64,000 nucleotides of DNA from an uncultured Chloroflexia bacterium (GCA_963819655.1 CAWFXA010000003.1:32001-96000), one strand, 5' to 3'. Positions 39,998 to 62,379 are shown, counted from the first letter of the stretch. Translations and numbers: made by a program. Notes: a model not told the origin generated them from the sequence alone.

Positions 39998-40074
39998 GCC
40001 GCATTCGTCTAGAGGCCCAGGACACCGCCCTCTCAAGGCGGAGATCACCGGTTCGAATCCGGTATGCGGTACCA
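39998..40074 (+). tRNA. tRNA-Glu (anticodon CTC)
   Basis: Acceptor stem GCCGCAT/ATGCGGT; anticodon arm CCGCC-CTCTCAA-GGCGG; T arm CCGGTTCGAATCCGG; encoded CCA; TATCCT -10 box at 39956. Confidence 0.96.
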
Positions 40075-40623: not shown

Positions 40624-41045
40624 TCTGGGACCTCCTGCTGAGCCCGCGACCGCCCTTGGCGGGCATTCGTCAGGTCAAGGCTAACGCTGCGGCCCATCTT
40701 CCGTTAGTACCGTCAGCCGCTGGGAAATCAACGAGTACCTGACGCTGTTCTGAGCGATCACAAGGATGGGTGACCACCCAACACGCGGCCGGCTCGGTCA
40801 GCGCCAAGCCGGATACCTTCCCCTTGTTGGGCTACGTGTCACGGTCGGTCGGGACTCGTAGCCGCTCGAATCCGGCGGAGCGCCTAGGTTACTGGTCAGG
40901 CGAATTGCGTGGCGCTTCGGGTTTGTCGCGCAAGCACCCCTGTCCGGACAGGTCGCACGTCCGACTAGTGATTCGAGCGCGCCCGACAGGAACCCCGACG
41001 GCACCGGCGCCCCGGACTCGTCCGGGCCATCTCTCGGCGCCGGAC

Positions 41046-41189
41046 CTGAACCCCTATCTGAACCCTTATGGATCCTGTGTCTTGTGTCTCATGTGTCTCT
41101 TGGATGTACTCGTTGAACGCGGCTGAGACACATGAGACGGTTCACTAGGCATCCGGTATGCGGTACCACTACACCACGACATGTAGTGG
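41046..41189. other. att junction 1: arm-like repeats, 14-bp inverted repeat, att core and NrdR-box-like palindrome
   Basis: CTGAACCCCTAT-CTGAACCCTTAT 41046-41069; IR 41086-41099/41125-41138; core 41151-41168; CCACGACATGTAGTGG 41174-41189. Confidence 0.7.
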
Positions 41190-41248
41190 TTTGTTGCGGT
41201 TTGATGGTCGCGCCAACCTGTCCTCTCCGACCCCGAGGGCGCGGTCAG

Positions 41249-41624
41249 CTACAGGTCGACCTGGACCTCGCCGTTGGCGACGTGGAGGGGGTAGCTGCGC
41301 ACGGGGTCCTCAGCCGGACCGCGCACGACCGCACCGCTCGTGACGTCGAAGCGGCTTCCGTGGCAGGCACACTGCACCGTGGACCCGTCGAGCTTCCCAT
41401 CACCCAGAGAGCAACCCCTGTGGGTGCACGTGTCGTCGATGGCAAAGAGCGTCCCGGCCACGTTCGCGAGGGTGATCCGCGTTCCCTTGGAGCGACCGGC
41501 CCCGATCGTCCTTAGGAGCGGGATCCGGCTCCGACCGACCGCTTCGGCGCCGTGCTCAACGGACCTCGAACGCCCGCACATGCCCCGGCTCGACGTCGGT
41601 CGTGCGCGCAATGGTTCTCAGCAT
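41249..41624 (-). pseudogene. Rieske [2Fe-2S] ferredoxin interrupted by a 73-bp insertion (41489-41561)
   Basis: GAGGAGG RBS, MLRTIARTTDVEPGHVRAFEV, then insertion with a stop, then KGTRITLANV...CTH...CACHGSRFD; removing 73 bp gives a 303-bp ORF. Confidence 0.75.
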
Positions 41625-41684
41625 CTCTGAACCTCCTCGAAGGACCACTTTGATCTCTCGTCAGGTGTCGTGTCCGCATGGGCC

Positions 41685-42092
41685 TCAGTTCCCGACAAGG
41701 CCCGCGCGAGCGGATGGCGTCGAGTCCTGCGCAGTACTGTCGGGGCCCGCGAAGACGTAGACGATCATCGCGACCCAGCCAAGGCTGACGAGCCCCAGGA
41801 CGAGCAGCACGACGAACCAGGTCTTGTCATCGAGTCGGGACGTGTTGAGCAGCGCACCGACCCACGAGGCGATCGCGGCCAGCGTGCCCGCCGCCAGGAC
41901 GAGCGAGGCGACGATGAGAGCGGCGATGGCCCAGGCGAACGGTCCGCCGCTCAGGGTCACGACCTCGGAGCCACGGATGACGACCGCGCCATTTGCGAGC
42001 GCCGCCACGACGCCAGCGATCCCGATGGTCAACCCCACGACGACCGTGGCGATGGCACCGGCGAACAGCCGGGTAATGGTTGACTTCGACAT
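41685..42092 (-). CDS. Small membrane protein
   Basis: Several hydrophobic helices; DKTWFVVLLVLG...MIVYVFAGPD. Confidence 0.72.
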   Translation of the reverse strand: MSKSTITRLFAGAIATVVVGLTIGIAGVVAALANGAVVIRGSEVVTLSGGPFAWAIAALIVASLVLAAGTLAAIASWVGALLNTSRLDDKTWFVVLLVLGLVSLGWVAMIVYVFAGPDSTAQDSTPSARAGLVGN

Positions 42093-42125
42093 TTCGACTA
42101 CCTCGCTGTTGGAGTCCGATGACCC

Positions 42126-42521
42126 TTACTCCCCGATGACCTCGATCACCATGCCGGGATGCCATGTGCAGACGAACTGCGTAGTTCCCTTTGGCACCGT
42201 GGCGGTCACCGTCACAATGCCCCCGGACTCCATCGGGCCGGTGCTGACATTCAGGTCAGTACTGGTGAAGTTGTGGTTCGACTGCCCCGCGTTGCGCAGC
42301 TCGAACGTTGCCGGGACTCCCGCGTCAACCTGCACGCTCGCGGGCTGGAACGTGTCGTCCTGCATGACGATCTGCGTGGCGTCCTGTCCGCCCGGGCCCG
42401 GCCGAACATCACCGGCCGCGTTCTCGCCCAGCGCATTTCCATAGATGGCCGCGGCACCTGCACCGATCACGACGACCAGCAGCAGCGCCGCGACCCCGGC
42501 GACAATCATCCATCGACGCAT
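42126..42521 (-). CDS. Exported cupredoxin-domain protein
   Basis: Signal/TM; HNF...FVCTWHPGM type-1 copper ligands. Confidence 0.82.
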   Translation of the reverse strand: MRRWMIVAGVAALLLVVVIGAGAAAIYGNALGENAAGDVRPGPGGQDATQIVMQDDTFQPASVQVDAGVPATFELRNAGQSNHNFTSTDLNVSTGPMESGGIVTVTATVPKGTTQFVCTWHPGMVIEVIGE

Positions 42522-42605
42522 CTCGAATCCTCCTAGCCCGATAGGGCACTTATGGATCCGGCCGTTGGCGACGCCAGCGCAGTCCGGACCCGTAGTCCGG
42601 CCACG

Positions 42606-42663
42606 ACCGTATGTCTCAGAGAGTCGCGAGTCGTCACTCGGAAGTGCAGTAGCGGGGTGGAAT
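42606..42663 (-). promoter_or_regulatory. Island-2 operator copy 1 plus -10 box
   Basis: ATTCCACCCCGCTACTGCACTTCCGAGTGA, 22 bp, TACGGT. Confidence 0.72.
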
Positions 42664-42716
42664 TCCGACGAGGAACGAGCACCGTCCCGAGGTTGGCAAG
42701 CCCTGGTCGGCGGGCC

Positions 42717-43841
42717 CTACGAGCGGAGCCGCAGCCCGAGTACTCGTATCGTTCGAAGGAGCGCATCCACCACTGGACCCGGGGCACGGTCACCGATGTT
42801 GATCATGACGCCCAGCTGTCGACGGCCATCCGGCGTGCTGAGGATCATGGTCAGGAAGCCGGGGATCCCACCGGCGGCGCCGACCAGTGGCCCGCCGGGT
42901 GTGTCGGTCTCGATGATCCCCAAGCCGTTTCGGTCAAACAGGGGCAACGGGAGGGAGGCCCGTGGGACTGCGACGCTGGTGAGCATCTCTGATAACAGCT
43001 GGGACGGCAGTAGCTCGCCACCGAGTAGGGCCCGAAAGAAGAGCTGGAGATCCTGGAGATTCGAGATGAGCGCGCCCGCTGCCCAGGCATATGAGGGGTT
43101 CTGGGCAGTGAAATCGATCAGCGGGCCGTCCACCACGTCCAGCTGCGGAGTCAGTGGCAGGCTGTATCCGCGCGACATCGGGCTCGGGATGCCAGTGCCT
43201 GCGACAGGGAAGGACGTGTCGCGGAGTCCGAGCGGCCTGAGGATCCGCCGTGACAGCTGCGTGCCGAGCCTCGTGCCAGTCGCCGCCTCGATGATGAGCC
43301 CGAGCAGGGTGTACCCGACGTTGGTATAGGCCCACGCGGTGCCCGCCGGAAAGAGCTGCGGGCGATCGGCAACGAGTGCGACCTGCGCTCGCGGGGTCCA
43401 GGTGCGAAATCGTCCGTCTGGGGACCCATACAGCGAGCGCCAGAGCATTGGCGCGTTGTGGGGCACGCCACTCGTGTGGTTGAGGAGCTGCCTGATGTTG
43501 ATCTGGTCGCCATAGGACAGGACGCCCGGCAACCACCGCTCCACCGAGTCCGAGAGCGACAGCATGCCGTCCGCGACCAGCTGGAGCACGACCGCTGCGA
43601 CGAACGGCTTCGTCACGCTGCCCGCCCGAAAGTGCAGGTGAGGCTGCATGGCACGGCCGGTTCGAAGGTCGGCGACGCCGCTCGCGACCTGTGCGACGAC
43701 GCGCTCATCCACGATCCGCGCCGCGGCCCCGGGCGCACCGGCCGCCACTAGCTTCCTGACCAGCTGCAGCAGCTCACCGGGATCATCAACGATCCGATCG
43801 ACAACGGTGGTGGCCGAAGGGGCACGCGACATCTCGCTCAC
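42717..43841 (-). CDS. Serine hydrolase, beta-lactamase/D-Ala-D-Ala peptidase family
   Basis: FRAGSVTK (SxxK), LLNHTSG, WAYTNVGY (YxN). Confidence 0.88.
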   Translation of the reverse strand: MSEMSRAPSATTVVDRIVDDPGELLQLVRKLVAAGAPGAAARIVDERVVAQVASGVADLRTGRAMQPHLHFRAGSVTKPFVAAVVLQLVADGMLSLSDSVERWLPGVLSYGDQINIRQLLNHTSGVPHNAPMLWRSLYGSPDGRFRTWTPRAQVALVADRPQLFPAGTAWAYTNVGYTLLGLIIEAATGTRLGTQLSRRILRPLGLRDTSFPVAGTGIPSPMSRGYSLPLTPQLDVVDGPLIDFTAQNPSYAWAAGALISNLQDLQLFFRALLGGELLPSQLLSEMLTSVAVPRASLPLPLFDRNGLGIIETDTPGGPLVGAAGGIPGFLTMILSTPDGRRQLGVMINIGDRAPGPVVDALLRTIRVLGLRLRS

Positions 43842-44275
43842 CGTCCGCCCCCCTCGAGGAGTCCCTTGAGAACGCCCAAGTTCTCGGCCACAGACGAGCG
43901 GATACGGCCGCCAACGAGGTCGGTGAGGGGTCCAAGCGGCACCTGCGGATCAAGCTCAACGAGGTTCTTGAGCCGCGTTCCCTGGGCGGTCGGTTCGAGC
44001 TCGTATCTCACCCGGGCTCTGAATGCCCCGATCGATCCTTCGACCTCGACCGTTCGATCGGGGACGAGGCGGGTGAGCTCGAGGAGCTCGACGGCAGGCC
44101 GCGGTACCTCTCGAGTCTGTCGGTAGCGAGTCCCCACGCCGACCGGGCCCGGAGTCACCTTGCGGGTGCTCGTGATCGCCCAGTTCCATTCCGGGGTGTG
44201 CTCGAGGTCAGCGAGGTAGGTGTAGACGACTCGTGGATCCCGCGCGATCTCGAGGGTGTTCTCGAAGTGCATCAT
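43838..44275 (-). CDS. SRPBCC (polyketide cyclase-like) protein
   Basis: IARDPRVVYTYLADLEHTPEWN...GPVGVGTRY. Confidence 0.82.
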   Translation of the reverse strand: MMHFENTLEIARDPRVVYTYLADLEHTPEWNWAITSTRKVTPGPVGVGTRYRQTREVPRPAVELLELTRLVPDRTVEVEGSIGAFRARVRYELEPTAQGTRLKNLVELDPQVPLGPLTDLVGGRIRSSVAENLGVLKGLLEGGGR

Positions 44276-44317
44276 GATCTCCGTCCTCCGATCGATACGT
44301 AGGCCGCCGGCGCGTGA

Positions 44318-44893
44318 TCACGGGTCCCGCTCGTCTACCGGTGGCCGCGTCCGCAGATCGATCAGCTCGGCGACCCAGGCTCGGAGTCGACCGAGGTGCT
44401 CGCCGTAATGCTCCGCGCCGGCCTTGCGAACCCAGCGGTCGGCCGCGTCGTCTGGCTCGCGAAGTGCGAACCACGCCTGGAGCATCCAGATCCGGGCGCC
44501 GTTGGCCTGCGTCCACACGACGTCCCAGGGCTCGTCCTTGAGGGCCGCCAGCGTCGCGGTGCTCCGGCGGTCGGCATCGAACTCGTGCGGCTCGTACGAG
44601 TTGGCCGCGATGTTGATCAACTGCGTTTCCGCTTCAGTGAGCCACATCCCAAGGTGAGCGATGAGGTCCTTCGCACTCCAGTCGGGATCCACGAAGTAAC
44701 CGGGGGCGAGTCGCTCGCCGGGTGTCAACAGATTGGTGAGTGCCGTGATCTCCGCCCAGCGAGCACGCTCGATCTCGATCTCGGCGATCAGCGACTGGTC
44801 GAATGCCGGCCACGCCGGAGGGCCGGTGACCGGTAGGCGTAGACGACCGTTGAGCGCATCGGGGCTGCGACCGTCCTGCAATTCGTGCGCCAT
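44318..44893 (-). CDS. DinB/MDMPI-like protein
   Basis: DWSAKDLIAHLGMW...EHYGEH. Confidence 0.72.
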   Translation of the reverse strand: MAHELQDGRSPDALNGRLRLPVTGPPAWPAFDQSLIAEIEIERARWAEITALTNLLTPGERLAPGYFVDPDWSAKDLIAHLGMWLTEAETQLINIAANSYEPHEFDADRRSTATLAALKDEPWDVVWTQANGARIWMLQAWFALREPDDAADRWVRKAGAEHYGEHLGRLRAWVAELIDLRTRPPVDERDP

Positions 44894-44910
44894 GGCAAGC
44901 GCCTCCTTCG

Positions 44911-45345
44911 TTACTGTGGGGTTTGGCTACGGCTTGTGGTGCGGCCCGTCGCGGTCGACCGCTTCGATGCGTTTGTGCGCACGCCCTCCCAATACCAGCG
45001 AGCGCCTTCCCACGCGGGCTGCCCTTCGGGCGGCCGAGCCACGTAGGTCCAAGTCGGGTTGGGATGAGCGCGGTGGACGGGTCGAGCCATCGGGGCGGAG
45101 GCGGCGGGCCGGTGGCGAACGAGCGGCGTCGCCGACGGAACTCGATTGAGAAGAGCCTCATAGGCCGCCTGGATGGACAGAAACGTGGCCAGGCCTTCGC
45201 CACCCGCGCGGTCGGGATGGAATCGCTTCGCGAGCCGTCGGTAGGCGACCTTGATCTCCGCGGGCGAAGCGCCCGGCCGCAGGCCGAGCCGTGCATATGC
45301 ACCCGATCGGAGGCCGGATCGGTGTGTTCGATTGATCGTGGTCAT
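44911..45345 (-). CDS. Short J-domain (DnaJ-like) protein
   Basis: YARLGL...EIKVAYRRLAKRFHPD...IQAAYEAL. Confidence 0.78.
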   Translation of the reverse strand: MTTINRTHRSGLRSGAYARLGLRPGASPAEIKVAYRRLAKRFHPDRAGGEGLATFLSIQAAYEALLNRVPSATPLVRHRPAASAPMARPVHRAHPNPTWTYVARPPEGQPAWEGARWYWEGVRTNASKRSTATGRTTSRSQTPQ

Positions 45346-45364
45346 CGTCTCGTCCGATCTGCCG

Positions 45365-45742
45365 CTACCCGACGGTCAGGCTGCCGCTCATGTCCGGATG
45401 GACGTCGCAGCGGAAGAAGTAGGTGCCCGATCCCAAGGCCGGCACGTCATAGACGACGACAGCGGGGCCGCTGAACGGCTCCTCGACGAGGACCTTCTCG
45501 GCCGCCGACGCGTCCCGGTAGATCGCGACGTTGTGGAGGGCGGCTTCCTGGTTGTCGAAGACGATCTGGAAGGGCTTGTCGGCCGGGGCAGTCAACGAGG
45601 TCGTCGAGAATGCGAGGCCATTGGCCTCGATCGACAGGGCGTCCGGACCGACCGACGGCTGAGTGGTCGGGTTGGCCGAGCCTCCTGCACAGGCGGTCAG
45701 CGCAGCAATCGGGATGAGTAGGGAGGCGAGCAGCCTCATCAT
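45365..45742 (-). CDS. Cupredoxin-domain lipoprotein
   Basis: Lipobox-like LTAC; HNVAI...YFFRCDVHPDM. Confidence 0.85.
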   Translation of the reverse strand: MMRLLASLLIPIAALTACAGGSANPTTQPSVGPDALSIEANGLAFSTTSLTAPADKPFQIVFDNQEAALHNVAIYRDASAAEKVLVEEPFSGPAVVVYDVPALGSGTYFFRCDVHPDMSGSLTVG

Positions 45743-45781
45743 CGGAAGGCTCCTATCGGGGTGATCTGAACTTGCTTCCTG

Positions 45782-45839
45782 AGGCTAGGAGCCGGCCCCG
45801 CGGCGGTCGTCACCCGAAGGTGGATAGGGCAGGTGGAAT
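45782..45839 (-). promoter_or_regulatory. Island-2 operator copy 2 plus -10 box
   Basis: ATTCCACCTGCCCTATCCACCTTCGGGTGA, 22 bp, TAGCCT. Confidence 0.75.
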
Positions 45840-45980
45840 CCTGCATAGGCGAACTCGGGGGATCGAGTGGCGTCGCGCCACCGGGTGGCGGCGGGGCTCG
45901 GGTCAAGGCCGTCTTGCTGGCGCGACGGCCGGGACGCGGGCGGGTGCCGCTCGACGCTCAGGGCCCGGCGGGCTCCGACC

Positions 45981-46199
45981 TCACGAAGCTCGGGCGCGGT
46001 CGTCCTCGATTCGGCGTACCGAGATCAGCACCAGGCCGAGGTCATTTACTCTCGACAGCAGTCCGTGCAGCGCAGCCTGGTCCGCGACCTGACCCACGAT
46101 GAGCGTCTCGTTCTCGCCAATGGTCCGGACTTCGAGCCCGTCGAACCAGGATGACCAGCGCTCGTCGAGGAGTCCCTCGACCCGGATCTCGTAGCCCAT
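45981..46199 (-). CDS. Small ACT-like protein, copy A
   Basis: MGYEIRVEGLLDERWSSWFDGL...DQAALHGLLSRVNDLGLVLISVRR; homologous to 60855-61067. Confidence 0.78.
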   Translation of the reverse strand: MGYEIRVEGLLDERWSSWFDGLEVRTIGENETLIVGQVADQAALHGLLSRVNDLGLVLISVRRIEDDRARAS

Positions 46200-46242
46200 C
46201 AGACGCGGATGCCCATGTCGAGCCCAACCACATCGTCCCGCC

Positions 46243-47994
46243 TCATTTGGTCGATGACGCCGCGGAGCGGTATCGCTGAACCTGCTGGCTCGCCGCGGCA
46301 CCCTCGCCCACGGCAGCGGCAACACGTTTCATCGAGTCATGGCGGACGTCGCCCGCCGCGAAGACGCCGGGCATCGTCGTTTCGAAAGGCAGCCGGGTGT
46401 GCCCGTCAGCTGACGGCACGTCGTCGCCCGTCAGGACGAAGCCTCGCTCGTCGCGGGCAATCGCTGACGGCAGCCATGCTGTTTGTGGCTCGGCGCCGAT
46501 CAGCAGGAATAGGCCCGTCGCGTCGCGTTCATCGATCGTCCCAGCGGCGTTGTCGCGGATCACGAGCGAGCGCAATCGCCGGTGGTCCCTCGCCTCGGCG
46601 ATCTCGCTGCTGAGACGCACCTCGACGTTGGGCAGGTCGTTCAGCTGCTCGAGCAGGTACTCCGACACGGTCCCGGCAAGCGAGTGGCCACGCACGATGA
46701 CGGTGACCGTTCGGGCGTAGCGGGCGAGGTGGATGGCCGATTGGGCGGCCGAATTTCCGCCGCCCACGACCGCGACTGGCTCACCGGCCATCGCGCGGGC
46801 CTCCGTCGCCCCCGAGCCGTAGAACACGCCACGGCCGACGAGGCCTTCGACGCTCGGGATCCCGATCCGCCGATACGACGCGCCCATCGCCAGTACGATC
46901 GCCCGCGCCCGCGCCTCGGAGCCGTCATCGAGCAGGACGATGCGCTCATCACCGTCAGCCCGAATCCCGTTCGCACCTCGGCCTATTCGCGCCTGGACGC
47001 CGAACATCCACGCCTGCTGCCAGGCTCGCCGCAGGAGCTCCGCGCCGCTCAGGCCGCTGGGGAATCCGAGGAAGTTTCGGATCATTGGACTCGAGCCCGC
47101 CTGACCGATGCTCGGCTCGACCAGCAACACGCGCAAGCCTTCTGAACCGAGATTCACCGCGGCCGACAGGCCCGCAGGCCCCGATCCGAGGATGGCCACG
47201 TCGAACGGTGTCGAAAGGGGCTCGGCGTTCGCGCCGAACGCTTCGGCAACCTCGGATAGCGACGGACGCGCCAGGATCCGGCCGTCGGGCAAGACGGCAA
47301 CCGGCATCCGATCGCCCGGATCGAGCCCGGCGACAAGGCGGAGGCCTTCGGCCGTTTCGGCAACGACGAACCCCACGCGGGCTCCCCCCCAGCGTTCGAG
47401 GACATCGGCGAGAGCCTGCCCCTGGACATCGGACCGCTCGCTGACGATCGTGATTCCAGAGGTGAAGCGGCCGTGCTCACGTGCCCAGTCGGCCAGGATG
47501 TCGCCGACCAGCGCCAGGAACTGCTCGTCGGTCTCGTTCCAGGGCAGGCTCGCTTGATGGTCGATCTCGCCGAGCGTCGCTGCGCGGGCGATCGTCGGCA
47601 GTGCCGACAGGTCGGACCATCGCGTCACGACGAGTCGTCGTGCGGTCGGAAAGGCGTCCCGGGTGCGGGCCAGGAAGGCGGTTCCGGTCTCTGGTTTCAT
47701 CCATTGACCTGCGACGATGAGGGCGACATCGGCCGCCTTGTCCCGAAGACGCAACAGCTCATTGAACGCGGCGACGGGTCCCGGCAAGGACATGACGTCG
47801 TAGTCGGTCCCGTACCGCCTGTTGAGGCATTCCTCCAGGACGTCACGGGCGCTCCGATCGTCCTCGACGACGAGGATCGTGGGCCGGTTCTGCGTCGGGT
47901 TCGCTGCAAATGTGCTGGTTGGGACGTCCGGCGGCAATCGCCAGCCGGCTGCCCAGCGACTCCGTCCATCGTTCCCGAGGGTGCTCTCGCTCAC
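46243..47994 (-). CDS. Receiver-like domain fused to a thioredoxin-reductase-like FAD oxidoreductase
   Basis: ILVVEDD; ILGSGPAGLSAA; VVGGGNSA; PGVFAAGDVRH...RVAAAVGEG. Confidence 0.85.
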   Translation of the reverse strand: MSESTLGNDGRSRWAAGWRLPPDVPTSTFAANPTQNRPTILVVEDDRSARDVLEECLNRRYGTDYDVMSLPGPVAAFNELLRLRDKAADVALIVAGQWMKPETGTAFLARTRDAFPTARRLVVTRWSDLSALPTIARAATLGEIDHQASLPWNETDEQFLALVGDILADWAREHGRFTSGITIVSERSDVQGQALADVLERWGGARVGFVVAETAEGLRLVAGLDPGDRMPVAVLPDGRILARPSLSEVAEAFGANAEPLSTPFDVAILGSGPAGLSAAVNLGSEGLRVLLVEPSIGQAGSSPMIRNFLGFPSGLSGAELLRRAWQQAWMFGVQARIGRGANGIRADGDERIVLLDDGSEARARAIVLAMGASYRRIGIPSVEGLVGRGVFYGSGATEARAMAGEPVAVVGGGNSAAQSAIHLARYARTVTVIVRGHSLAGTVSEYLLEQLNDLPNVEVRLSSEIAEARDHRRLRSLVIRDNAAGTIDERDATGLFLLIGAEPQTAWLPSAIARDERGFVLTGDDVPSADGHTRLPFETTMPGVFAAGDVRHDSMKRVAAAVGEGAAASQQVQRYRSAASSTK

Positions 47995-48039
47995 GTGGTC
48001 TCCTCGATCAAGGCGGCGGCTGCCGCGCGGTTCTCGAAG

Positions 48040-48098
48040 ACGCTACGAGCCGGAGCTGATCGCGGTCATCACCCGAAGGTGGACGAGAGCGGTGGAAA
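48040..48098 (-). promoter_or_regulatory. Island-2 operator copy 3 plus -10 box
   Basis: TTTCCACCGCTCTCGTCCACCTTCGGGTGA, 23 bp, TAGCGT. Confidence 0.75.
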
Positions 48099-48115
48099 TG
48101 TCGCGATGGGTTCGG

Positions 48116-50914
48116 CTACGGAATCAATCCAAGCTCGCGAGCGTGGGCGGCCGCCTCGGTGCGGTTCGTAGCGCCGAGCTTGCCCAGGATGTGGGTGGCG
48201 TGCTTCTTGACCGTATCGAGCGTGACGAACAGCTCATCGGCGATCTCGCGATTCGACTTGCCGGCCGCAAGGAGCTGGAGCACCTCAAGTTCACGCTCGC
48301 TCAGCGCCTCGATGAGGCCCGGGATCGTCGTGGAGCGTGAATCGACGAGCCGGTCCCCGGGCGAGGCGCCCCGCGCTGACGCCGGCTCCAATGCGGCGCC
48401 CAGACGGCTGAGGTAGCCCAGCGACACACCCGCGCTCGTCAAGTCCCGACCGCGTTTGGCGACAAGCCGGGCGAGCAGGGTGGCCATCGTTTGCCCCTCG
48501 TCGACGAAGACCCGCACCCATCCCTGTGGGGCGGCGAAGGTTACTGCCTCGGCCAGGGCGTCGAGCGCGCCGTCCTCCTCGCCGCGCGCCGCGCGCGCCA
48601 GCGCCCGAAGGCTATGGATCTCGATCGCACTCCCGAAGCGGCCCTGCTCGGTCGCTGTCCGCAACAGCCGATCCAATAGCCTCGAGGCCTGTTCGGGGCG
48701 GTCCTGCGCGATCAGCACGCGGGCCAGGAGAAGATGTGCCGGCTCGCGGGGGTATGTCGGCTCATCGTCAGCGTCGAGGCCCCGCTCCACCGTCCAAGCA
48801 GCGGCCGCGTCGACGTCACCCAGGACGAGCAGCAACCGTGCCCGCGATGCGGGCACGGGGTTAAGCAGGTCGACCACGTCGGAGCCGGGTGCAACCTCGA
48901 TGGCCTCGGACATCGCCTCCAGCGCCCCGGCTGGATCGCCCTGCGCCTGCCGGATCCAGGCCATGTCGGCCAGACCCGTCGCCAGTGGCTGGGTGTATGC
49001 CAGCTGGCGGCATAGCGCGATCCCATCGGTGATGTGCCGCATCGCGCTGGCGAGATCGCCCCGCTGGTAGGCCACCTCGGCGATGCCCACGTATGGGATA
49101 CCGGCGGCCGGCAGCGGCGGGCGGCCCGGGACCGCCGTGATCTCCAATGCCCGGTGGTAGGTCTCGAGTTCCGCGTCCAGGTCGCCCAGCGCGCGGTGGA
49201 CCTGGCCGAGGCGATGGCACTGCGAGGCGACTTGGAAGGACAGGCCGGCCGCGTGCCACCCGTCGATGATCGACGACAGCACGCGCTCGGCATCGGGTAG
49301 CCGGCCGGACAGCCAATCCGCCACGGCCAGGTGCGCGCGGACCAGCGACGCCATCATCGACTGGCCATCGCCGAATTCGACCAGCGCCCGCGAGGCGAAC
49401 GCGATCGTCGCGTCGATGTCGCCGTGGAGCTCGGCGACGTATGCCCGGTAGTGGGCGATCCTCCCGGGGACGTTCGCGAGGCCCCCGGTTGCTCCGTCGA
49501 CAGAAGGCGCTTCCGACTCCGGCCCGACTTCCGCGTAGGCGCGCTCGGCGGCATCCAGCAGCCCATCGACTGCCTCCACCTGTCCACCCTGGATGGCCAG
49601 GACAACCTGCGCCAGTAACAGCCGCGGACGGCCTTGGATGATCTGGCCGGGCAGCGCGGCGAGCCACCGTTCGACGGTCGCTCCCTCCCCCCGCAGCAGG
49701 AGCTCGCCGGCGTGTTGCTCGATGAGTCTGGCCGCGAGATCGACATCTCCAGCCGCCCGCGCGTGACGCACAGCTTCGTCGGCCAGCGCATGCTCCTCGT
49801 ACCACGCGGCGGCGCTCCGATGCAGCTCCGTGAACCGCGCGGGCTGCTCCTGCTGCAGGCGCGCGCGCAGCAGGTCGGCAAACAGATGGTGGTAGCGCCA
49901 CCAGCGCCGCATCTCGTCCATCGGCACAAGGAACAGGTTCGCTCGCTCGATCTCCTCCAACAGCTGCTGGCTATCGCTGCGGCCTGTGACGGCGTCGCAC
50001 AGCGGCCCCGACAGCCGCTCCAGGATCGACGTCTCCAGCAGGAAGTTCCGAATCGATCCTGGCTGGCGCTCGAGTACCTCCTCGGTCAGGTAGTCCAGGA
50101 TGTATCGGTGGCTGCCCGAGAACGCCTCGAGGAAGGCAGTCACGTCAGGTCGCCCGCGAAGCGACAGGGCAGCGAGCTGTAACCCGGCCGCCCACCCTTC
50201 GGTGCGGTCCGTGAGAGTTGCCACGGTCGTATCGGGCAAGGGCAGGTCTGATCCGACCGCGTCGCGCAGGAGCGCGGCAGCCTCGTCGATCGTGAACCTC
50301 AGATCCGCGGCTCGCAGTTCGGCCAGCTGTCGGCGGCCTCGCAGCCGCGCGAGAGCCAATGGAGGGTCGGCGCGGCTCGACAGCACAAGGTGAACTCGCG
50401 GCGGCAGATGCTCCAGCAGGAACGTCACCGACTTGTGCACCGCCCACGAGTCGATAACGTGGTAGTCGTCCAGGACCAGCACCACTTCGTCGCTGCCGGG
50501 TCGGGCGGCGAGCTCATTGACCAAGGCCGCCACCGGCCCCTCGAAGGATGGCGGTGCGGGTGGACCAAACAGGGGGCCGGTCAGCTCGGCGACGCCGGGC
50601 TGGACGCGGTCAAGGGCCGCAATGGCGTGGCGCCAGAAGCGTGCCGGGTCGTTGTCGCCAGGGTCGAGCGATATCCAGGCCGGCGCCCATCGGCCGGTCT
50701 GGCTCCAGTCGGCGAGCAGGGCCGTCTTCCCGAACCCAGCCGGAGCGCAGACGAGGATGAGCGCCCGCTCCAACCCCTCGTTGAGCTGCTCCACGAGCCG
50801 GGGGCGGGGGACGAAGCCCGGCTGACGGGGTGGAACGTACAGTTTGGTGGCGAGCACCCCGTCCGAGGCGCCGGAGGCGACCGGCCGGGAGGTCGCTCCA
50901 GGCGGTTGAGACAT
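48116..50914 (-). CDS. MalT-like STAND ATPase-TPR-LuxR transcriptional activator
   Basis: ATKLYVPP, APAGFGKT, LVLDDYH, TEGWAAGLQL, RYHHLFADLL; LSERELEVL...TVKKH...KLG. Confidence 0.92.
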   Translation of the reverse strand: MSQPPGATSRPVASGASDGVLATKLYVPPRQPGFVPRPRLVEQLNEGLERALILVCAPAGFGKTALLADWSQTGRWAPAWISLDPGDNDPARFWRHAIAALDRVQPGVAELTGPLFGPPAPPSFEGPVAALVNELAARPGSDEVVLVLDDYHVIDSWAVHKSVTFLLEHLPPRVHLVLSSRADPPLALARLRGRRQLAELRAADLRFTIDEAAALLRDAVGSDLPLPDTTVATLTDRTEGWAAGLQLAALSLRGRPDVTAFLEAFSGSHRYILDYLTEEVLERQPGSIRNFLLETSILERLSGPLCDAVTGRSDSQQLLEEIERANLFLVPMDEMRRWWRYHHLFADLLRARLQQEQPARFTELHRSAAAWYEEHALADEAVRHARAAGDVDLAARLIEQHAGELLLRGEGATVERWLAALPGQIIQGRPRLLLAQVVLAIQGGQVEAVDGLLDAAERAYAEVGPESEAPSVDGATGGLANVPGRIAHYRAYVAELHGDIDATIAFASRALVEFGDGQSMMASLVRAHLAVADWLSGRLPDAERVLSSIIDGWHAAGLSFQVASQCHRLGQVHRALGDLDAELETYHRALEITAVPGRPPLPAAGIPYVGIAEVAYQRGDLASAMRHITDGIALCRQLAYTQPLATGLADMAWIRQAQGDPAGALEAMSEAIEVAPGSDVVDLLNPVPASRARLLLVLGDVDAAAAWTVERGLDADDEPTYPREPAHLLLARVLIAQDRPEQASRLLDRLLRTATEQGRFGSAIEIHSLRALARAARGEEDGALDALAEAVTFAAPQGWVRVFVDEGQTMATLLARLVAKRGRDLTSAGVSLGYLSRLGAALEPASARGASPGDRLVDSRSTTIPGLIEALSERELEVLQLLAAGKSNREIADELFVTLDTVKKHATHILGKLGATNRTEAAAHARELGLIP

Positions 50915-51077
50915 CGCGCGCGGGGCCTCACTCGTACCCGGGCTCCCGGGTGCGGCCGCGGGGCGCGGGCGGTCATTGTATGTCGCCCGCCACTGGCCCC
51001 AGTCGCGGTACCCACCGCCACCAGGCGATGCCACTCGCCGGATCCCAGCTGAATGCAGGGGCCGCCGGCGCTTGAGG

Positions 51078-51136
51078 ATTCCACCCCCAGACGCCACTTC
51101 CGAGTGACGACGTGTGGGCCCACCCCTCCGTAGCGT
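51078..51136 (+). promoter_or_regulatory. Island-2 operator copy 4 plus -10 box
   Basis: ATTCCACCCCCAGACGCCACTTCCGAGTGA, 23 bp, TAGCGT. Confidence 0.75.
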
Positions 51137-51199
51137 GCTGGCACAGCCGCGACCCGCAGCGGCCACCTGTTCGACATAGCTTGCAAGGAGTTTCACCAC

Positions 51200-51700
51200 A
51201 TGTCCGCGAACATCTTCACTTCCCGGGGCGCCGGCAGTGCGCTCCTCACGGCAGTCGTCCTCGAACTGACCGCCGCCACGGCCTACATCCACGTCAGCCT
51301 CGGCGGGACGCTCTTCCTGCTCAACGCCCTCGGTTACGTGGTCCTCGGACTCGCGTACGCGCTCGGTTCCGTCGCACCGATCCGGATCGTCCAGCGATTC
51401 AGCTGGTTGCCTCGGGTCGCGCTCGCCGCGTACGCGCTCGTCACGATCGGCGCGTACCTCGTGACCGGCCCCTACATCGTCCTTGGCTGGGTTGCCAAGG
51501 GGATCGAGGTCGCGATCGTCGGCCTGATCTGGCTTGACCTACTCAGCAAGTACGGCAGCCCGAGCGGACTCACCCGCGCCGCCGCCGATTTCGATCAGGA
51601 CGCCGTTCCCACCCCGCAATCCGCTCCGTGGGTGAGCGGGCCGTGCGCGGCCAGCCACGGAAGGGCGGGAGGATGCCCGCCAAATCAGCAGGAGATCTGA
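51200..51700 (+). CDS. Hypothetical 4-TM membrane protein
   Basis: AAGGAG RBS; TAYIH...LFLLNALGY...KGIEV. Confidence 0.72.
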   Translation: MSANIFTSRGAGSALLTAVVLELTAATAYIHVSLGGTLFLLNALGYVVLGLAYALGSVAPIRIVQRFSWLPRVALAAYALVTIGAYLVTGPYIVLGWVAKGIEVAIVGLIWLDLLSKYGSPSGLTRAAADFDQDAVPTPQSAPWVSGPCAASHGRAGGCPPNQQEI

Positions 51701-51701
51701 A

Positions 51702-51941
51702 ATGAACGCAACGATCACCACACGAGGCGGCACCGGGTCGACAGCCCGGGGCGGTGAGCCCGAACTGCCTGCGGTCACCTACCGCCTGCTCGGCTCGAGG
51801 GGTTTCCGCTCCGACGAGGCGGGGAACCTGACGGCCTATCTGCATGGCCTCCGGCCCGTCAAGGGCGGCTGGGCCGTCGGCGAGATCGAGCGCCTGCTAT
51901 TCCTGCGCCACCTCGTCGCGCGCGGCAATCTGGGCTCGTGA
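51702..51941 (+). CDS. Small hypothetical protein
   Basis: AGGAG RBS; GFRSDEAGNLTAYLHGL...WAVGEIERLLFLR. Confidence 0.65.
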   Translation: MNATITTRGGTGSTARGGEPELPAVTYRLLGSRGFRSDEAGNLTAYLHGLRPVKGGWAVGEIERLLFLRHLVARGNLGS

Positions 51942-52109
51942 GGAGAGGCGTGGCCGAACCACGCAAGGATCCGCGGAGAGGAGTTGATCGTGAACTACCG
52001 ATTTGAGGTTGCAAGCCGAAGGCCCGTTGAAGGCGTCACGAAAGTCGTCCGCTGCCGACGCCTGTCATGTGCCCAACGCAGATGCCCACCGGGCTCAGGC
52101 CTTTGAGGT

Positions 52110-52315
52110 CTGAACCCTTATCTGGATTGATCCATGCTGCCCATGGCGCTCTAGGACGTCCAATGTGAGCGCTGTGGGCCGCATGCGACAAGCCGACAAG
52201 CATCCGGTATGCGGTACCACTCCACCACAGCAAATGTAGTGTTCTGTGCGGCTCAGACCACAGCATCCTGTGGTTCTACCGAAATCGAACGTTGTTGACC
52301 CTTCTGGACCCTTAT
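52110..52315. other. att junction 2: arm-like repeat, att core, tandem NrdR-box-like sites, downstream arm-like repeats
   Basis: CTGAACCCTTAT 52110-52121; core 52202-52219; ACAGCAAATGTAGTGT 52227 and CCACAGCATCCTGTGG 52258; TGACCCTT/GGACCCTTAT 52296-52315. Confidence 0.7.
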
Positions 52316-52428
52316 CCTGCGATGGCCAGCAGTACTCGACCAGATGCAGCCGAGAGTCGACCGGATAGGGCGGAGGTCGATGATGCGTCGGCGCTCCTCG
52401 GCGACCTAGCATGTCCGGTGGTCAAGTG

Positions 52429-52503
52429 GAACACCTGTACTGGCGCGCCCGACAGGAGTTGAGCGCGCGGATGCCATATATATTCGCATCCCCGTCGAAG
52501 GGG
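52429..52503 (+). repeat. ~75-bp repeat copy A with LexA-box-like site
   Basis: GAACACCTGTAC then CGCGCCCGACAGGAGTTGAGCGCGCGGATGCCATA, identical to 61276-61310. Confidence 0.8.
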
Positions 52504-57994: not shown

Positions 57995-60661
57995 CTATCC
58001 GCGCCTCCGCGTCGCCGCGGCGAGCAGCCCGAGATCGCGAGCGCGTTCGACCGCCTCGGTGCGTCGATGGACGCCGAGCTTCTCGTAGACGTGGCGCATG
58101 TGGGTCTTGACCGTGCTCGTGGAGACGAACAGCTCGCCGGCGATGTCCGGTGCCGACAGGTTGCTCGGCAGGTAGCGAAGGACGCGAAGTTCGCTCTCGC
58201 TGAGCGGCTCGGCCAGGGTCGCCAGCTCTCCCACGCCGGCTGGCGGCAAGCCGGCATAGCATGCCGCGGATGTCGGTCAGCAGGGTGGCGTGAGCCGTTC
58301 GGTGGCGAGGGTGGCGATCGAGGAGATCCGTCCACGGGCGTGATGAGGAACGGGAAGACGACGGCGTCGGCCTCGGTCAACGTCGAGCGCACGCTCGACG
58401 TCCGCTTCCGCGGCGTCCCCCTGGCCGAGCCGCTCCCGGGCGAGCGCATCGATGAAGCAGCGCCTGGACCAGCGTGAACACGCGGATCACGGACGCCTCG
58501 CCGTTGAGGACCGGGGCGAGGACCTCGATGGCCGACGACGCGTCCTCGTCGGCGAGGTGGATCGCAGCCGCCGCGCACCGGGTCTCGCCCCAGTCGCGCT
58601 GTTCCTGACCGACTCGAGCGAGCGTGGCGCGCGCGGCCTCGCGCTGGCCCATCCGCAGACTGCGGTCTGGACGAGGAAGTTCCGCACGAGGGCGGTGTTG
58701 ACATGCATCGTGACGAGGGACGCCTGCGTTCGCTCGGCGGCCGCGAATACGCCGGCCGCCTCGTCGAGTTGACCCTCACCGAAGCGCTGGATGCCGCGCA
58801 CCAGGAACAGGAACAGCGCAGTGGCGGGCTCCACTTCCGTGCGCAGCGCGCGCTCTGCTCGATCGAGCCACTCGCCACCTTCGGCTATCCGACCCTGGGC
58901 GACGTCGACCGCCGCCATGGTCGCCAGCGCCATGCACGCGATCGGTTCGGTCTCCCAGCCGTGGCGCTCGGCGATCGCGACCGCCTCGGCCGTGACCGGC
59001 CGCTGCCGGGTCAGCGGCCGAGTCGGCAGGAGTGCCATGTGAGAGAGGCAGCCGATCTCGAGGTACGGCCGTCCGGCTCGACGCGCGAGCCCAAGGGCGT
59101 GCTCGAGGTCGCGTTCGGCATCGTCCGGGCGACGCGCCCACAGCTCGAGGATGCCGAGGTTCATCAAGGCCTTAGCGCGCGCGTCGTCTCCGAGGAGCAC
59201 CCCGTCGAAGGCGTTGGCTGCCGGCTCGAGGAGCGTGCGGACCTCGGCGAGCACGGACGCGTCGTCGCCGCGACGGCGCGCAAGGGCGAGCCGGGCGATG
59301 GCGAGGTTGAGCCCGAAACGTGCCCGCCGGTCGGGCGGAACGTCCTCGTGATGCTGCTCGGCCAGCGCGATGTACGACGCTGCGGTCCCGAGCGAATGGG
59401 CCGAGAGCTCCTGGTAGGCCATGAACGCCGCGAGCTCGGGCTCGCGTCGAACTTCCGCCGGTAGGGCCGCGAGGAGGCCGTCGACCGCCGCTCCCTGCCC
59501 GTCGAGCGAGAGCGTGAGGCCGTGCTCCGCGAGGAGGCGGCCCGCGTAGTCCCACGCCTCGGCTCGCTCGGCGTGGCGGACCGCCTCGAGCACGTTGCCA
59601 TGGGCGACGTACCAATCGGCGGCGGCGAGGTGAAGCTGGGGCACGTCCTCGGGGCTCGTGCGGCGGAGCTCCAGCCGCAGGAGATCTGCCAGCAAATGGT
59701 GGTAGCGGAACGTCGTCCTCGCCGCATCGACCGCCACGACGAAGGCGTTCTCGTCCTCGAGCCAGAGGAGGATTCGTTCGGACCCCATGGACCTGAGGAG
59801 GTGGTCTGCCAGCGGCCCGGTGACGTTGTCGAGGATCGAGGTTCGAAGGAGCAGGCGACGGACGTCCGCGGGCAGGCGGGCGAGCACCTCGGCGAGCAGG
59901 TAGTCGGCCACGGTCCGCTCATTGCCCGAGAACTCGGCGACGAAGCGGCGCGGATCCGGATGACCAGCGAGCGAGAGCGCGGCCAGGCGGAGCCCGGCTG
60001 CCCAGCCCTCGGTCCTGCCATGGAGCTGCGACAGGCTGTCGTCGTCGAGCCGGACGTGCGCCGCCTCCAGAAGTCTGTGCGTCTCGGCGAGGTTGAACCG
60101 CAGATCGGCCTCGCGAATCTCCGTGAGCTGGCCGGCCAGGCGCAGTCGATGGAGCCCGAGCTGCGGGTCGTGGCGCGTCGCCAGCACGATGCAGAGATGT
60201 TCGGGACGGCCCGCGATGAGTTCGGCGAGGTCGTCGCGCGCCAAAGCGGCGCGGAGTTCATGGAGGTCGTCGATCACCAGCAGGATCGGCCGATCGAGCC
60301 CGGCGAGCTGGGCGATCAGCCTCTGTACCAGGGCAGCACCGTCGAATTGCGGTGATGGAGCGAGCGGCGCAAGGACGGCGTCCGATCCGACGGCCGCGCG
60401 GAGCTGTTCGAGCACTGAGAGCCAGAAGCGCTGGGGGTCCTGCTCGTCCCGCCGGACCGAGACCCAGGCGGCGCGGTCGGCGAGGTTCGCTTCGTTGATC
60501 CACGACCGCAGCAGCACGGTCTTCCCGCTGCCAGGCGGCGCCGAGACGAGCGTGACGCCGCCTGCCAACCCGGCGGACAGGCGCTCGAAGAGGTCCGGCC
60601 GCGCGACAACGGACGGAGGGTGCGCACCCGAGGTGATCGAGGATGTCCTCACCTTGCGCAT
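57995..60661 (-). CDS. Second MalT-like STAND-TPR-LuxR activator, frameshifts clustered at 58250-58660
   Basis: APPGSGKT, LVIDDLH, TEGWAAGLRL, RYHHLLADLL; LuxR HTH LSESELRVLRYL...TVKTHMRHVYEKLG in ORF 57995-58249. Confidence 0.85.
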
Positions 60662-62134: not shown

Positions 62135-62345
62135 TCGACGATCATGCCGTCCGCGGGCGTGGGACCCTCCTCGACGCGCCGGATCGCGCCGCGCGGGGAT
62201 GCTGCTGGCCGAGCCTCGCGCAAAGGTGACCCATCGAGGTCTCGATGGTCTGCGGGGTGCGGGCTGCCGGTCGGTCGCGGTGGCAAGTAGTTTGGGGCGC
62301 ACAGGTGCGAGCCGCCCTTCACGACCATCCGCGGGAACCGCTCGT
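62131..62345 (-). pseudogene. C-terminal remnant of a formylglycine-generating enzyme (SUMF1/FGE family)
   Basis: PRMVVKGGSHLCAPNY and, in a shifted frame, AARTPQTIETSMGHL; cut off at the att copy. Confidence 0.7.
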
Positions 62346-62379
62346 CGGTATGCGGTACCAATCGCCCCGAGCTGTATTT

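Follow-up and report, generated by a model that had tools for sequence, protein, structure and literature searches.

A MalT-family regulator and four aligned promoter-proximal sites

The stretch of DNA analysed here (the window) comprises 64,000 nucleotides of an uncultured Chloroflexia bacterium (GCA_963819655.1, CAWFXA010000003.1:32001-96000) and carries, between positions 42,606 and 51,136, the gene of a MalT-family regulator together with four aligned 30-bp elements that we discuss as candidate operators of this protein. The regulator is a large ATP-binding LuxR (LAL) protein of 932 amino acids encoded on the minus strand (48116-50914) that combines a STAND ATPase with a TPR_MalT sensor and a GerE/LuxR helix-turn-helix (HTH) domain, and its start codon is supported by the lengths of homologues and an invariant M1. 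The translation contains Walker A (APAGFGKT) and Walker B (VLVLDD) motifs, residues 21-438 match the MalT NOD structure 8bob (E = 1.9e-63), residues 484-818 cover positions 1-334 of the 336 of PF17874 TPR_MalT (E = 5.7e-56), and residues 870-925 match PF00196 GerE (E = 4.7e-19), while AAA_16 is among the precomputed domains of the regulator's homologues. Residues 22-928 align to positions 4-896 of the 903 of the NCBIfam MalT model (NF003420) with a score of 428.4 bits, which lies below the equivalog cut-off of 537, so that we regard the protein as a member of the MalT family and not as a MalT orthologue. A family scan of the island's open reading frames (ORFs) found no maltodextrin genes among its cargo.

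A protein search returned at least 8000 homologue candidates of the regulator, all with E ≤ 0.001. The 120 homologues listed comprise one that is 94% identical, one that is 71% identical and others at 61-68%, and all of them carry automatic names only. In the recognition helix, residues T901, K903, K904 and H905 are invariant across 28 aligned homologues (61-94% identity), and such a near-invariant helix fits an operator that is common to these proteins.

The four elements match the pattern TTCCACC-N9-CACYTYCGRGTGA (up to three mismatches), which finds just these four places in the window, compared to a mean of 0.02 matches in 100 shuffled controls of which none reached four, and direct reading of the sequence bears out the positions and strands given in the first-pass annotation. 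Sites 1 to 3 lie on the minus strand (42634-42663, 45810-45839 and 48069-48098) and site 4 on the plus strand (51078-51107), all within 8.5 kb and with none elsewhere in the window; the 3' half of the pattern alone (CACYTYCGRGTGA, up to two mismatches) adds just two matches, both poor. Each site is indeed directly followed by CGAC or TGAC and, 18-19 nt further on (i.e., 22-23 nt past GTGA), by a TAnnnT hexamer as had been claimed. These predicted -10 boxes are TACGGT (42606-42611, minus strand) 22 nt after site 1, TAGCCT (45782-45787, minus strand) 22 nt after site 2, and TAGCGT 23 nt after both site 3 (48040-48045, minus strand) and site 4 (51131-51136, plus strand). A profile hidden Markov model (HMM) built from 106 sites of other genomes (see below) recovers all four with E = 6e-12 to 1.4e-6 (1.4e-6, 6.4e-12, 4.2e-8 and 4.2e-7 for sites 1 to 4, respectively) and finds no fifth site in the window, where its next match is partial (E = 0.21). 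Each of the four transcription units discernible in the region begins behind one of the sites, in agreement with the earlier statement that the motif heads every cargo unit. Site 3 lies 17 nt past the stop codon of the regulator gene, and site 4 is divergent from this gene at 163 nt from its start codon.

Regulator, sites and cargo share a segment that is framed by repeats of a tRNA gene. The only tRNA of the window, tRNA-Glu(CTC), lies at 39998-40074 (plus strand), and exact copies of the last 18 nt of its 3' end (40057-40074) are found on the same strand at 41151-41168, the left boundary of the island, and at 52202-52219, the right boundary, where the similarity to the copy at 41151 extends over 54 nt. 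A further copy matches in 15 of 18 positions (62343-62360), and the chance expectation for such copies is 0.03. Together the repeats delimit three tandem att-bounded segments of 1.1 kb, 11.05 kb (the putative regulon) and 10.1 kb. The third of these contains a second STAND-type ATPase ORF (58487-60661, minus strand; 724 amino acids; AAA_16 and AAA_22) in which no HTH was recognised. The segment from 41169 to 52219 holds exactly the regulator, the four sites and their cargo, and this content, bracketed by exact tRNA-Glu 3'-end repeats, lends support to the view that the island is self-contained. It is tRNA-adjacent and bounded by direct repeats in the manner of a tRNA-integrated island, and no integrase family was detected among the ORFs of the island or in a scan of 22 ORFs flanking it, which leaves room for small or degraded genes.

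The motif and its probable regulator in other genomes

We scanned 185,579 species genomes with the relaxed pattern TTCCACC-N9-CACNTYCGNGTGA and retrieved 2-kb flanks for the first 80 of at least 132 loci; all counts are lower bounds. At least 129 distinct pattern sites were found in at least 132 foreign loci, and together with the four sites of the window they make up the 133 sites examined. We defined a full site by a TAnnnT hexamer 19-26 nt after GTGA and divided the foreign full-site loci into 60 long and 41 short ones. Such a hexamer is present at 110 of the 133 sites, and in 107 of these 110 it lies at exactly 22 nt (70 sites) or 23 nt (37 sites) past GTGA, most often as TAGCGT (43), TACCGT (23) or TAACGT (13) besides rarer forms. 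Beyond the positions imposed by the pattern, the 110 sites share GAAGA on the 5' side of the motif, G.tc within the N9 spacer and CG.C after GTGA, whereas the sequence outside the motif block and the -10 box is not conserved between sites.

The full foreign sites (at least 106) come from at least 65 assemblies of which 62 are labelled as Actinomycetota, Actinomycetes or an actinobacterial family and one each as Chloroflexia, beta proteobacterium and Planctomycetota. Two or more sites occur on 20 of the 80 contigs, and 19 of these 20 groups span no more than 15 kb. The other 23 pattern matches mostly belong to unrelated phyla, often lie within genes and for the most part look like the chance background to be expected, though three of them (L032, L075 and L129) look genuine and carry odd -10 boxes. 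A position-weight scan added seven sites that are one base off the exact pattern or have an N8 spacer. Comparison of the window with its nearest relative (locus L003 for site 2 and locus L002 for site 3) revealed no substitution in the boxes or -10 hexamers, but with promoter intergenic regions that are 92-94% identical the two are too close for phylogenetic footprinting to be informative. The predicted operator belongs to a large clade of regulators and is not special to the island.

When the island proteins were used as tblastn queries, just two of them, the regulator and a 72-amino-acid protein, recurred broadly in the foreign loci listed. A regulator homologue is encoded in at least 72 of the 132 loci at E ≤ 1e-5, where the best 25 listed are 50-69% identical and the weaker ones include matches to the HTH alone (L052), and homologues with 46-69% identity are found by tblastn in 42 of the 60 long and 16 of the 41 short full-site loci. 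Among the 23 background matches, the only regulator homologue is that of L129, which is probably genuine despite its odd -10 box; the match at L052 covers just the HTH of 61 amino acids. Clustering of the ORFs of the 60 long loci tells a similar story, with the regulator in 39 loci, the small protein in 14 and anything else in at most 10. Apart from the regulator, no DNA-binding protein or sigma factor recurs among these ORFs, and the island and its surroundings yielded none either. The first-pass annotation had named an abundance of the motif independent of the regulator as one of the observations that would refute its proposal. The motif is indeed widespread, yet tied to regulator orthologues, with a homologue encoded in the DNA retrieved around 62 of the 106 foreign full sites, and the proposal withstands this test.

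The arrangement of these pairs is highly regular. The nearest regulator gene lies upstream of the site in 59 of the 62 cases, either in tandem (31 sites, with the regulator stop codon 6-198 nt before the motif in 28 of 30 measured) or divergently (28 sites, with the regulator start codon 88-232 nt away in 21 of 25 measured), and sites 3 and 4 of the window match the tandem and divergent geometries, respectively. At none of the 62 sites with a homologue is the regulator the gene directly driven, and it therefore behaves as a regulator of its neighbours and not as a co-regulated target. Up to seven sites per assembly were found, spread over several contigs. At two loci (L047, CAVUNW010000002.1, and L033, CAVZLP010000016.1), at least two regulator paralogues lie no more than a few kb apart, and the same operator-like motif flanks every one of them, which suggests that paralogous regulators may cross-talk.

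More distant homologues were sought in a plasmid collection, where the best regulator homologue is 41% identical, and we took four regions (38-41% identity) for comparison. In Deinococcus peraridilitoris plasmid pDEIPE01, the regulator gene is followed by the perfect palindrome GTCACCACATGTGGTGAC, a gap of 23 nt and TATCGT, and in pDR48-2 it is followed by TCAC-N8-GTGA, again 23 nt and TATCTT, both read by eye. The homologues on these two plasmids are 38-39% identical to the island regulator, and the GTGAC half-site and the 23-nt gap persist while the rest of the repeat differs, as expected if operator and regulator co-evolve, albeit from few cases. In an Acaryochloris plasmid, the regulator homologue is divergent to genes for a 69-amino-acid hypothetical protein and an MFS transporter.

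Promoter geometry and competing explanations

By convention, -10 hexamers occupy positions -12 to -7, with TANNNT as the usual form in high-G+C Gram-positives and transcription starting 6-7 nt after the hexamer. Placed on this scale, the A of GTGA would fall at -35/-36, i.e., the promoter-proximal part of each site would cover the position of a -35 element. The sites had been described as combinations of CCACC and GGTGA half-sites; these elements are present but are better read as an imperfect inverted repeat, GTCCAC-N5-GGTGAC, with an upstream direct-repeat box, TTCCACC. The inverted repeat (GTCCAC-TTTCG-GGTGAC; 6+5+6 = 17 bp) has its predicted centre near -42, and the distal arm recurs 13 bp upstream as the TTCCACC box, whose predicted centre is near -60. 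In none of the window promoters is a -35-like hexamer apparent 16-18 nt from the -10 box, and ACGCCn or ACGACn is found at 17 nt instead, though -35 elements are weakly conserved in high-G+C bacteria. A simple sigma-70 consensus scan likewise picks none of the four promoters, which is expected of activator-dependent high-G+C promoters and uninformative. The overlap of the site with the -35 position at a fixed distance from the -10 box, a class II trait, is seen at all four window sites and at 107 of 110 sites overall.

From this sequence evidence we consider it likely that the four sites are operators of the MalT-family activator encoded at 48116-50914, which would act in a class-II-type manner with the site taking the place of a -35 element. 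The same proposal in the first-pass annotation thus gains support from the linkage of motif and regulator and from the fixed spacing. By analogy with MalT, an inducer would bind the TPR sensor of the regulator, the ATP-bound ATPase domain would open, and the protein would multimerise. The LuxR HTH domains would then bind the operator boxes cooperatively, with the promoter-proximal arm of the inverted repeat ending at about -35, and the proximal protomer would bring RNA polymerase holoenzyme to a promoter that is defective on its own. The regulator, its operators and their cargo would form one unit of 11 kb, and, being bracketed by tRNA-Glu 3'-end repeats, this regulon could move as a block.

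Several known systems resemble this arrangement in part. Lux boxes and other class II sites are centred near -41.5/-42.5, where the centre of the inverted repeat is also predicted, and LuxR-type class II activators share the GerE/LuxR HTH of the island regulator, but they are small ligand-binding or receiver proteins instead of STAND ATPases and normally act at a single symmetric site that lacks the additional direct-repeat box. LAL regulators encoded within Streptomyces antibiotic clusters (PikD-type) are large ATP-binding LuxR proteins that control neighbouring genes like the island regulator is predicted to do, though the targets here are not biosynthetic clusters. Escherichia coli MalT has the same four-part architecture, collinear over its full length with the island regulator, while the boxes differ (GGTGAC/TCCACC on the island, GGGGA(T/G)GAGG for MalT), the island cargo is unrelated to maltodextrins, and the whole putative regulon lies on an att-bounded island. 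In excerpts, one account of MalT describes a route from inducer and ATP to a multimer, cooperative box binding and recruitment of RNA polymerase (PMC4381067), and, according to excerpts of another paper, its operator is assembled from several short boxes, of which the proximal box lies at the -35 region (PMC7567727), as proposed here.

The closest precedent that we found is MalT of Actinoplanes sp. SE50/110 (ACSP50_3915), which, as stated in the excerpts of the same paper, activates a maltose-responsive region of 51 genes via TCATCC-N5-GGATGA, as shown by deletion and overexpression (PMC7567727). The excerpts place the 17-bp palindrome over the -35 region, give a distance of 34.4 +/- 1.0 nt between its 3' end and the start site for 17 mapped starts, report conservation of the motif beside homologues in related genera and propose horizontal transfer (PMC7567727). 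Judged from these excerpts, the two systems share a MalT-like LuxR regulator of high-G+C Gram-positive type, a 6+5+6 motif overlapping the -35 position, a distance from the motif's 3' end to the start site that is predicted at ca. 34 nt here, and the presence of the motif at many promoters of one contiguous, poorly annotated region (PMC7567727). They differ in the sequence of the motif, and the excerpts describe no third upstream box (PMC7567727); the two proteins were compared by description only. The kind of system is therefore already known, whereas the box sequence differs from the MalT boxes of both E. coli and Actinoplanes. Searches of open-access papers and preprints for LAL sites with WhiB, for whiB7 with MalT-like or STAND proteins and for operator strings turned up no description of this operator, and its core 13-mers do not occur in the papers listed. 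The earlier remark that no such description was known is in line with these searches as regards the operator itself but has to be qualified by the close precedent for the architecture, as far as the excerpts of that paper convey it (PMC7567727).

Some observations weigh against an activator acting at these sites. No regulator is found in the fetched DNA for 44 of the 106 foreign sites (18 of the 60 long and 25 of the 41 short loci), and conservation at the imposed positions is circular because the genome scan was made motif-first. The arms of the inverted repeat deviate from true symmetry, and the operator HMM has no match in the four plasmid regions (best E = 0.65), of which only two contain a related repeat, recognised by eye. 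Leaderless-gene candidates for the predicted start sites number 7 of 110 with one or two convincing cases, too few to serve as evidence, and we infer binding, activation, start sites and multimerisation at these operators from sequence and from analogy. Moreover, a site that overlaps the -35 position is also compatible with repression.

Repression is, in our view, the foremost competitor, though an unlikely one: the regulator could bind the same sites as a repressor or dual regulator and keep the -35 region covered as long as no inducer releases it. LuxR-type proteins can repress, and the proximal arm of the operator does cover the -35 region. Yet a native -35-like hexamer seems to be missing from these promoters at 16-18 nt from the -10 box, the sigma-70 scan finds none of the four, and a distance between operator and -10 box that is fixed within 1 nt in 107 of 110 cases is characteristic of activators in contact with RNA polymerase. 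According to the excerpts of both accounts, moreover, MalT and its Actinoplanes homologue are activators (PMC4381067, PMC7567727). It seems still less probable that the motif is an alternative sigma promoter or the site of another factor and that the MalT-like gene is merely a frequent neighbour. The CGT shared by many of the -10 boxes (TAGCGT, TACCGT, TAACGT) is reminiscent of extracytoplasmic function (ECF)-type -10 elements, and the 44 sites without a regulator in the fetched DNA also speak for this reading. However, the conserved block of ca. 38 bp upstream of the -10 box is far longer than a sigma -35 element, no sigma factor or other DNA-binding family recurs near the sites or in the island, the regulator gene sits beside the sites in either of two fixed arrangements, and among distant homologues the related repeat has changed in step with the regulator.

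We regard it as very improbable that the element is an RNA or DNA structure (the hairpin CACY-TTCG-RGTG within a leader or 3' untranslated region), or else a dispersed repeat or duplicated promoter that does not serve as an operator. A double change within the window (CACC...GGTG versus CACT...AGTG) and the ability of 96 of the 110 sites to pair at this position, if G-U is counted, speak for a hairpin, and site 3 indeed sits in the 3' flank of the regulator gene. But such a stem would comprise just four pairs, its pair counts (TG 42, CG 35, TA 19, CA 6, other 8) are close to independence, and the element lies upstream of a conserved -10 box and would hence be untranscribed by these promoters. 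Rfam has no match at E ≤ 1 in 41000-52500, and at its gathering threshold it reports nothing but the tRNA in the whole window; an RNA element was ruled out on the grounds of the missing Rfam match and the near-independent pair counts. The flanks, finally, are not conserved between sites, unlike those of mobile repeats. Operators of a MalT-family activator hence remain our preferred reading of the four sites.

Cargo of the island, predicted targets elsewhere and biological meaning

The unit behind site 1 (all genes of the first three units being on the minus strand) comprises a cupredoxin with an N-terminal membrane anchor (42126-42521; Cupredoxin_1, E = 4.1e-12; copper ligands present), a 135-amino-acid protein with three hydrophobic spans and no family (41685-42092), and a Rieske [2Fe-2S] protein (41249-41611; Pfam, E = 5.5e-18). 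The unit behind site 2 begins with a cupredoxin with a lipoprotein-type signal (45365-45742; Cupredoxin_1, E = 2e-9; ligands H and C-x2-H-x2-M, with H83, C118, H121 and M124 invariant) and continues with a DnaJ-domain protein (44911-45345; DnaJ, E = 7.2e-12), a 191-amino-acid protein that is possibly DinB-like (44318-44893), an SRPBCC (Polyketide_cyc2) protein (43838-44275; E = 3.9e-14) and a Beta-lactamase-family serine hydrolase (42717-43841; PF00144, E = 1.7e-59). The His and Cys-x2-His-x2-Met copper ligands are kept in both island cupredoxins. Behind site 3 follow a receiver-like N-terminus fused to a thioredoxin-reductase-like flavoprotein (46243-47994; Pyr_redox_2, E = 1.9e-33; TRX_reduct, E = 8.7e-59 but below the equivalog cut-off; Response_reg, E = 7.6e-4 and thus below the cut-off) and the 72-amino-acid protein of an unnamed family (45981-46199), which has tblastn matches in at least 27 loci. 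In the sequence as read by eye, the receiver-like domain of the flavoprotein seems to be without the usual context of the phospho-acceptor aspartate. The plus-strand unit behind site 4 encodes a hydrophobic four-span protein of 166 amino acids (51200-51700) and a 79-amino-acid ORF (51702-51941), both without a family.

The cargo labels proposed in the first-pass annotation were largely right, i.e., for the two cupredoxins, the Rieske protein, the hydrolase, the SRPBCC and DnaJ proteins, the Pyr_redox_2 protein with its weak receiver match, and the TPR_MalT and GerE domains of the regulator. The label "DinB" came down to a sub-threshold MDMPI_N match of the 191-amino-acid protein (E = 0.015), which also found no match in a search of PDB sequences, and "ACT", the label of the 72-amino-acid protein, received no support from Pfam or NCBIfam.

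Among the foreign loci listed, the cupredoxin, the DnaJ-domain protein, the 191-amino-acid protein and the flavoprotein recur by tblastn solely in L002 and L003, which represent orthologous promoters in a close relative with a Chloroflexia label; the cargo of this relative is 76-94% identical to that of the window. The copper/redox flavour ascribed to the regulon is therefore apt for the island and its nearest relative only and not a trait of the clade, because the foreign sites head other gene families. Compared to its positional orthologue in this relative (L002:1-1980), the regulator itself is a mosaic with ca. 80% identity over residues 272-351, 28-52% over residues 392-631 and 85-100% over residues 752-932. 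The HTH is 98-100% identical between the close relatives and the sensor segment 28-52%; the arm and the first half of the sensor have either been swapped or are evolving very fast.

To see which genes follow the motif elsewhere, we took the longest high-GC3 ORF starting 30-330 nt after it as the first downstream gene, a scripted choice of which some picks may be wrong, and scanned 66 such ORFs from the listed loci with Pfam. They include nine Abhydrolase_3/BD-FAE hydrolases, eight WhiB proteins, six MFS_1 transporters, five YceI proteins, four ABC ATPases and two FAD_binding_4/BBE oxidases, besides single cases of MMPL, EamA, amidohydrolase, CMD and others, and several belong to an unnamed family of ca. 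70 amino acids without a Pfam match. An alignment of seven of the WhiB proteins shows an EPxGVWGG turn in all seven and a C-terminal RGRP AT-hook in six, which we take to be features of the WhiB7 type. Genes of this WhiB7 type lie behind the motif in many Actinomycetes metagenome-assembled genomes, at L012:2325-2642, L033:1395-1703, L040:503-814, L047:1394-1708, L061:2458-2745 and other loci, ca. 290 nt downstream of the site and divergent from the regulator, and their leaders may hold a small upstream ORF.

The family of ca. 70 amino acids, to which the 72-amino-acid island protein belongs, is the commonest companion of the regulator and often provides the first gene after a divergent operator-like site (e.g., L029:2091-2300 and L013:2092-2310). 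The island protein has 2216 homologues that are all annotated as "hypothetical", it matches no Pfam or NCBIfam family, and an Atlas lookup of a homologue returned only unnamed clusters.

We tentatively raise the possibility that this regulator clade, which has thousands of soil-metagenome members, constitutes an undescribed sensor of stress or xenobiotics whose operator directly drives WhiB7-type resistance regulators, efflux pumps of the drug type and hydrolases across many Actinomycetes. The cassette might then travel as a tRNA-integrating island with freely exchanged cargo and sensor segment, i.e., as a portable and re-programmable regulon in which the 70-amino-acid protein is perhaps a dedicated partner or feedback modulator.

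MalT-like LAL regulators are among the most numerous orphan regulators of high-G+C soil bacteria, and hardly any of them has a known DNA target. For one large clade of these proteins, the motif described here provides a precise candidate operator with a fixed promoter geometry and more than 100 instances, found next to this regulator family across many soil Actinomycetota, and the regulon of the clade can now be predicted from its sequence alone. The recurrent targets suggest that in many uncultured Actinomycetes a WhiB7-type resistance regulator is under the control of such a sensor, and the island of the Chloroflexia bacterium indicates that regulator, operators and cargo can move together as one unit.

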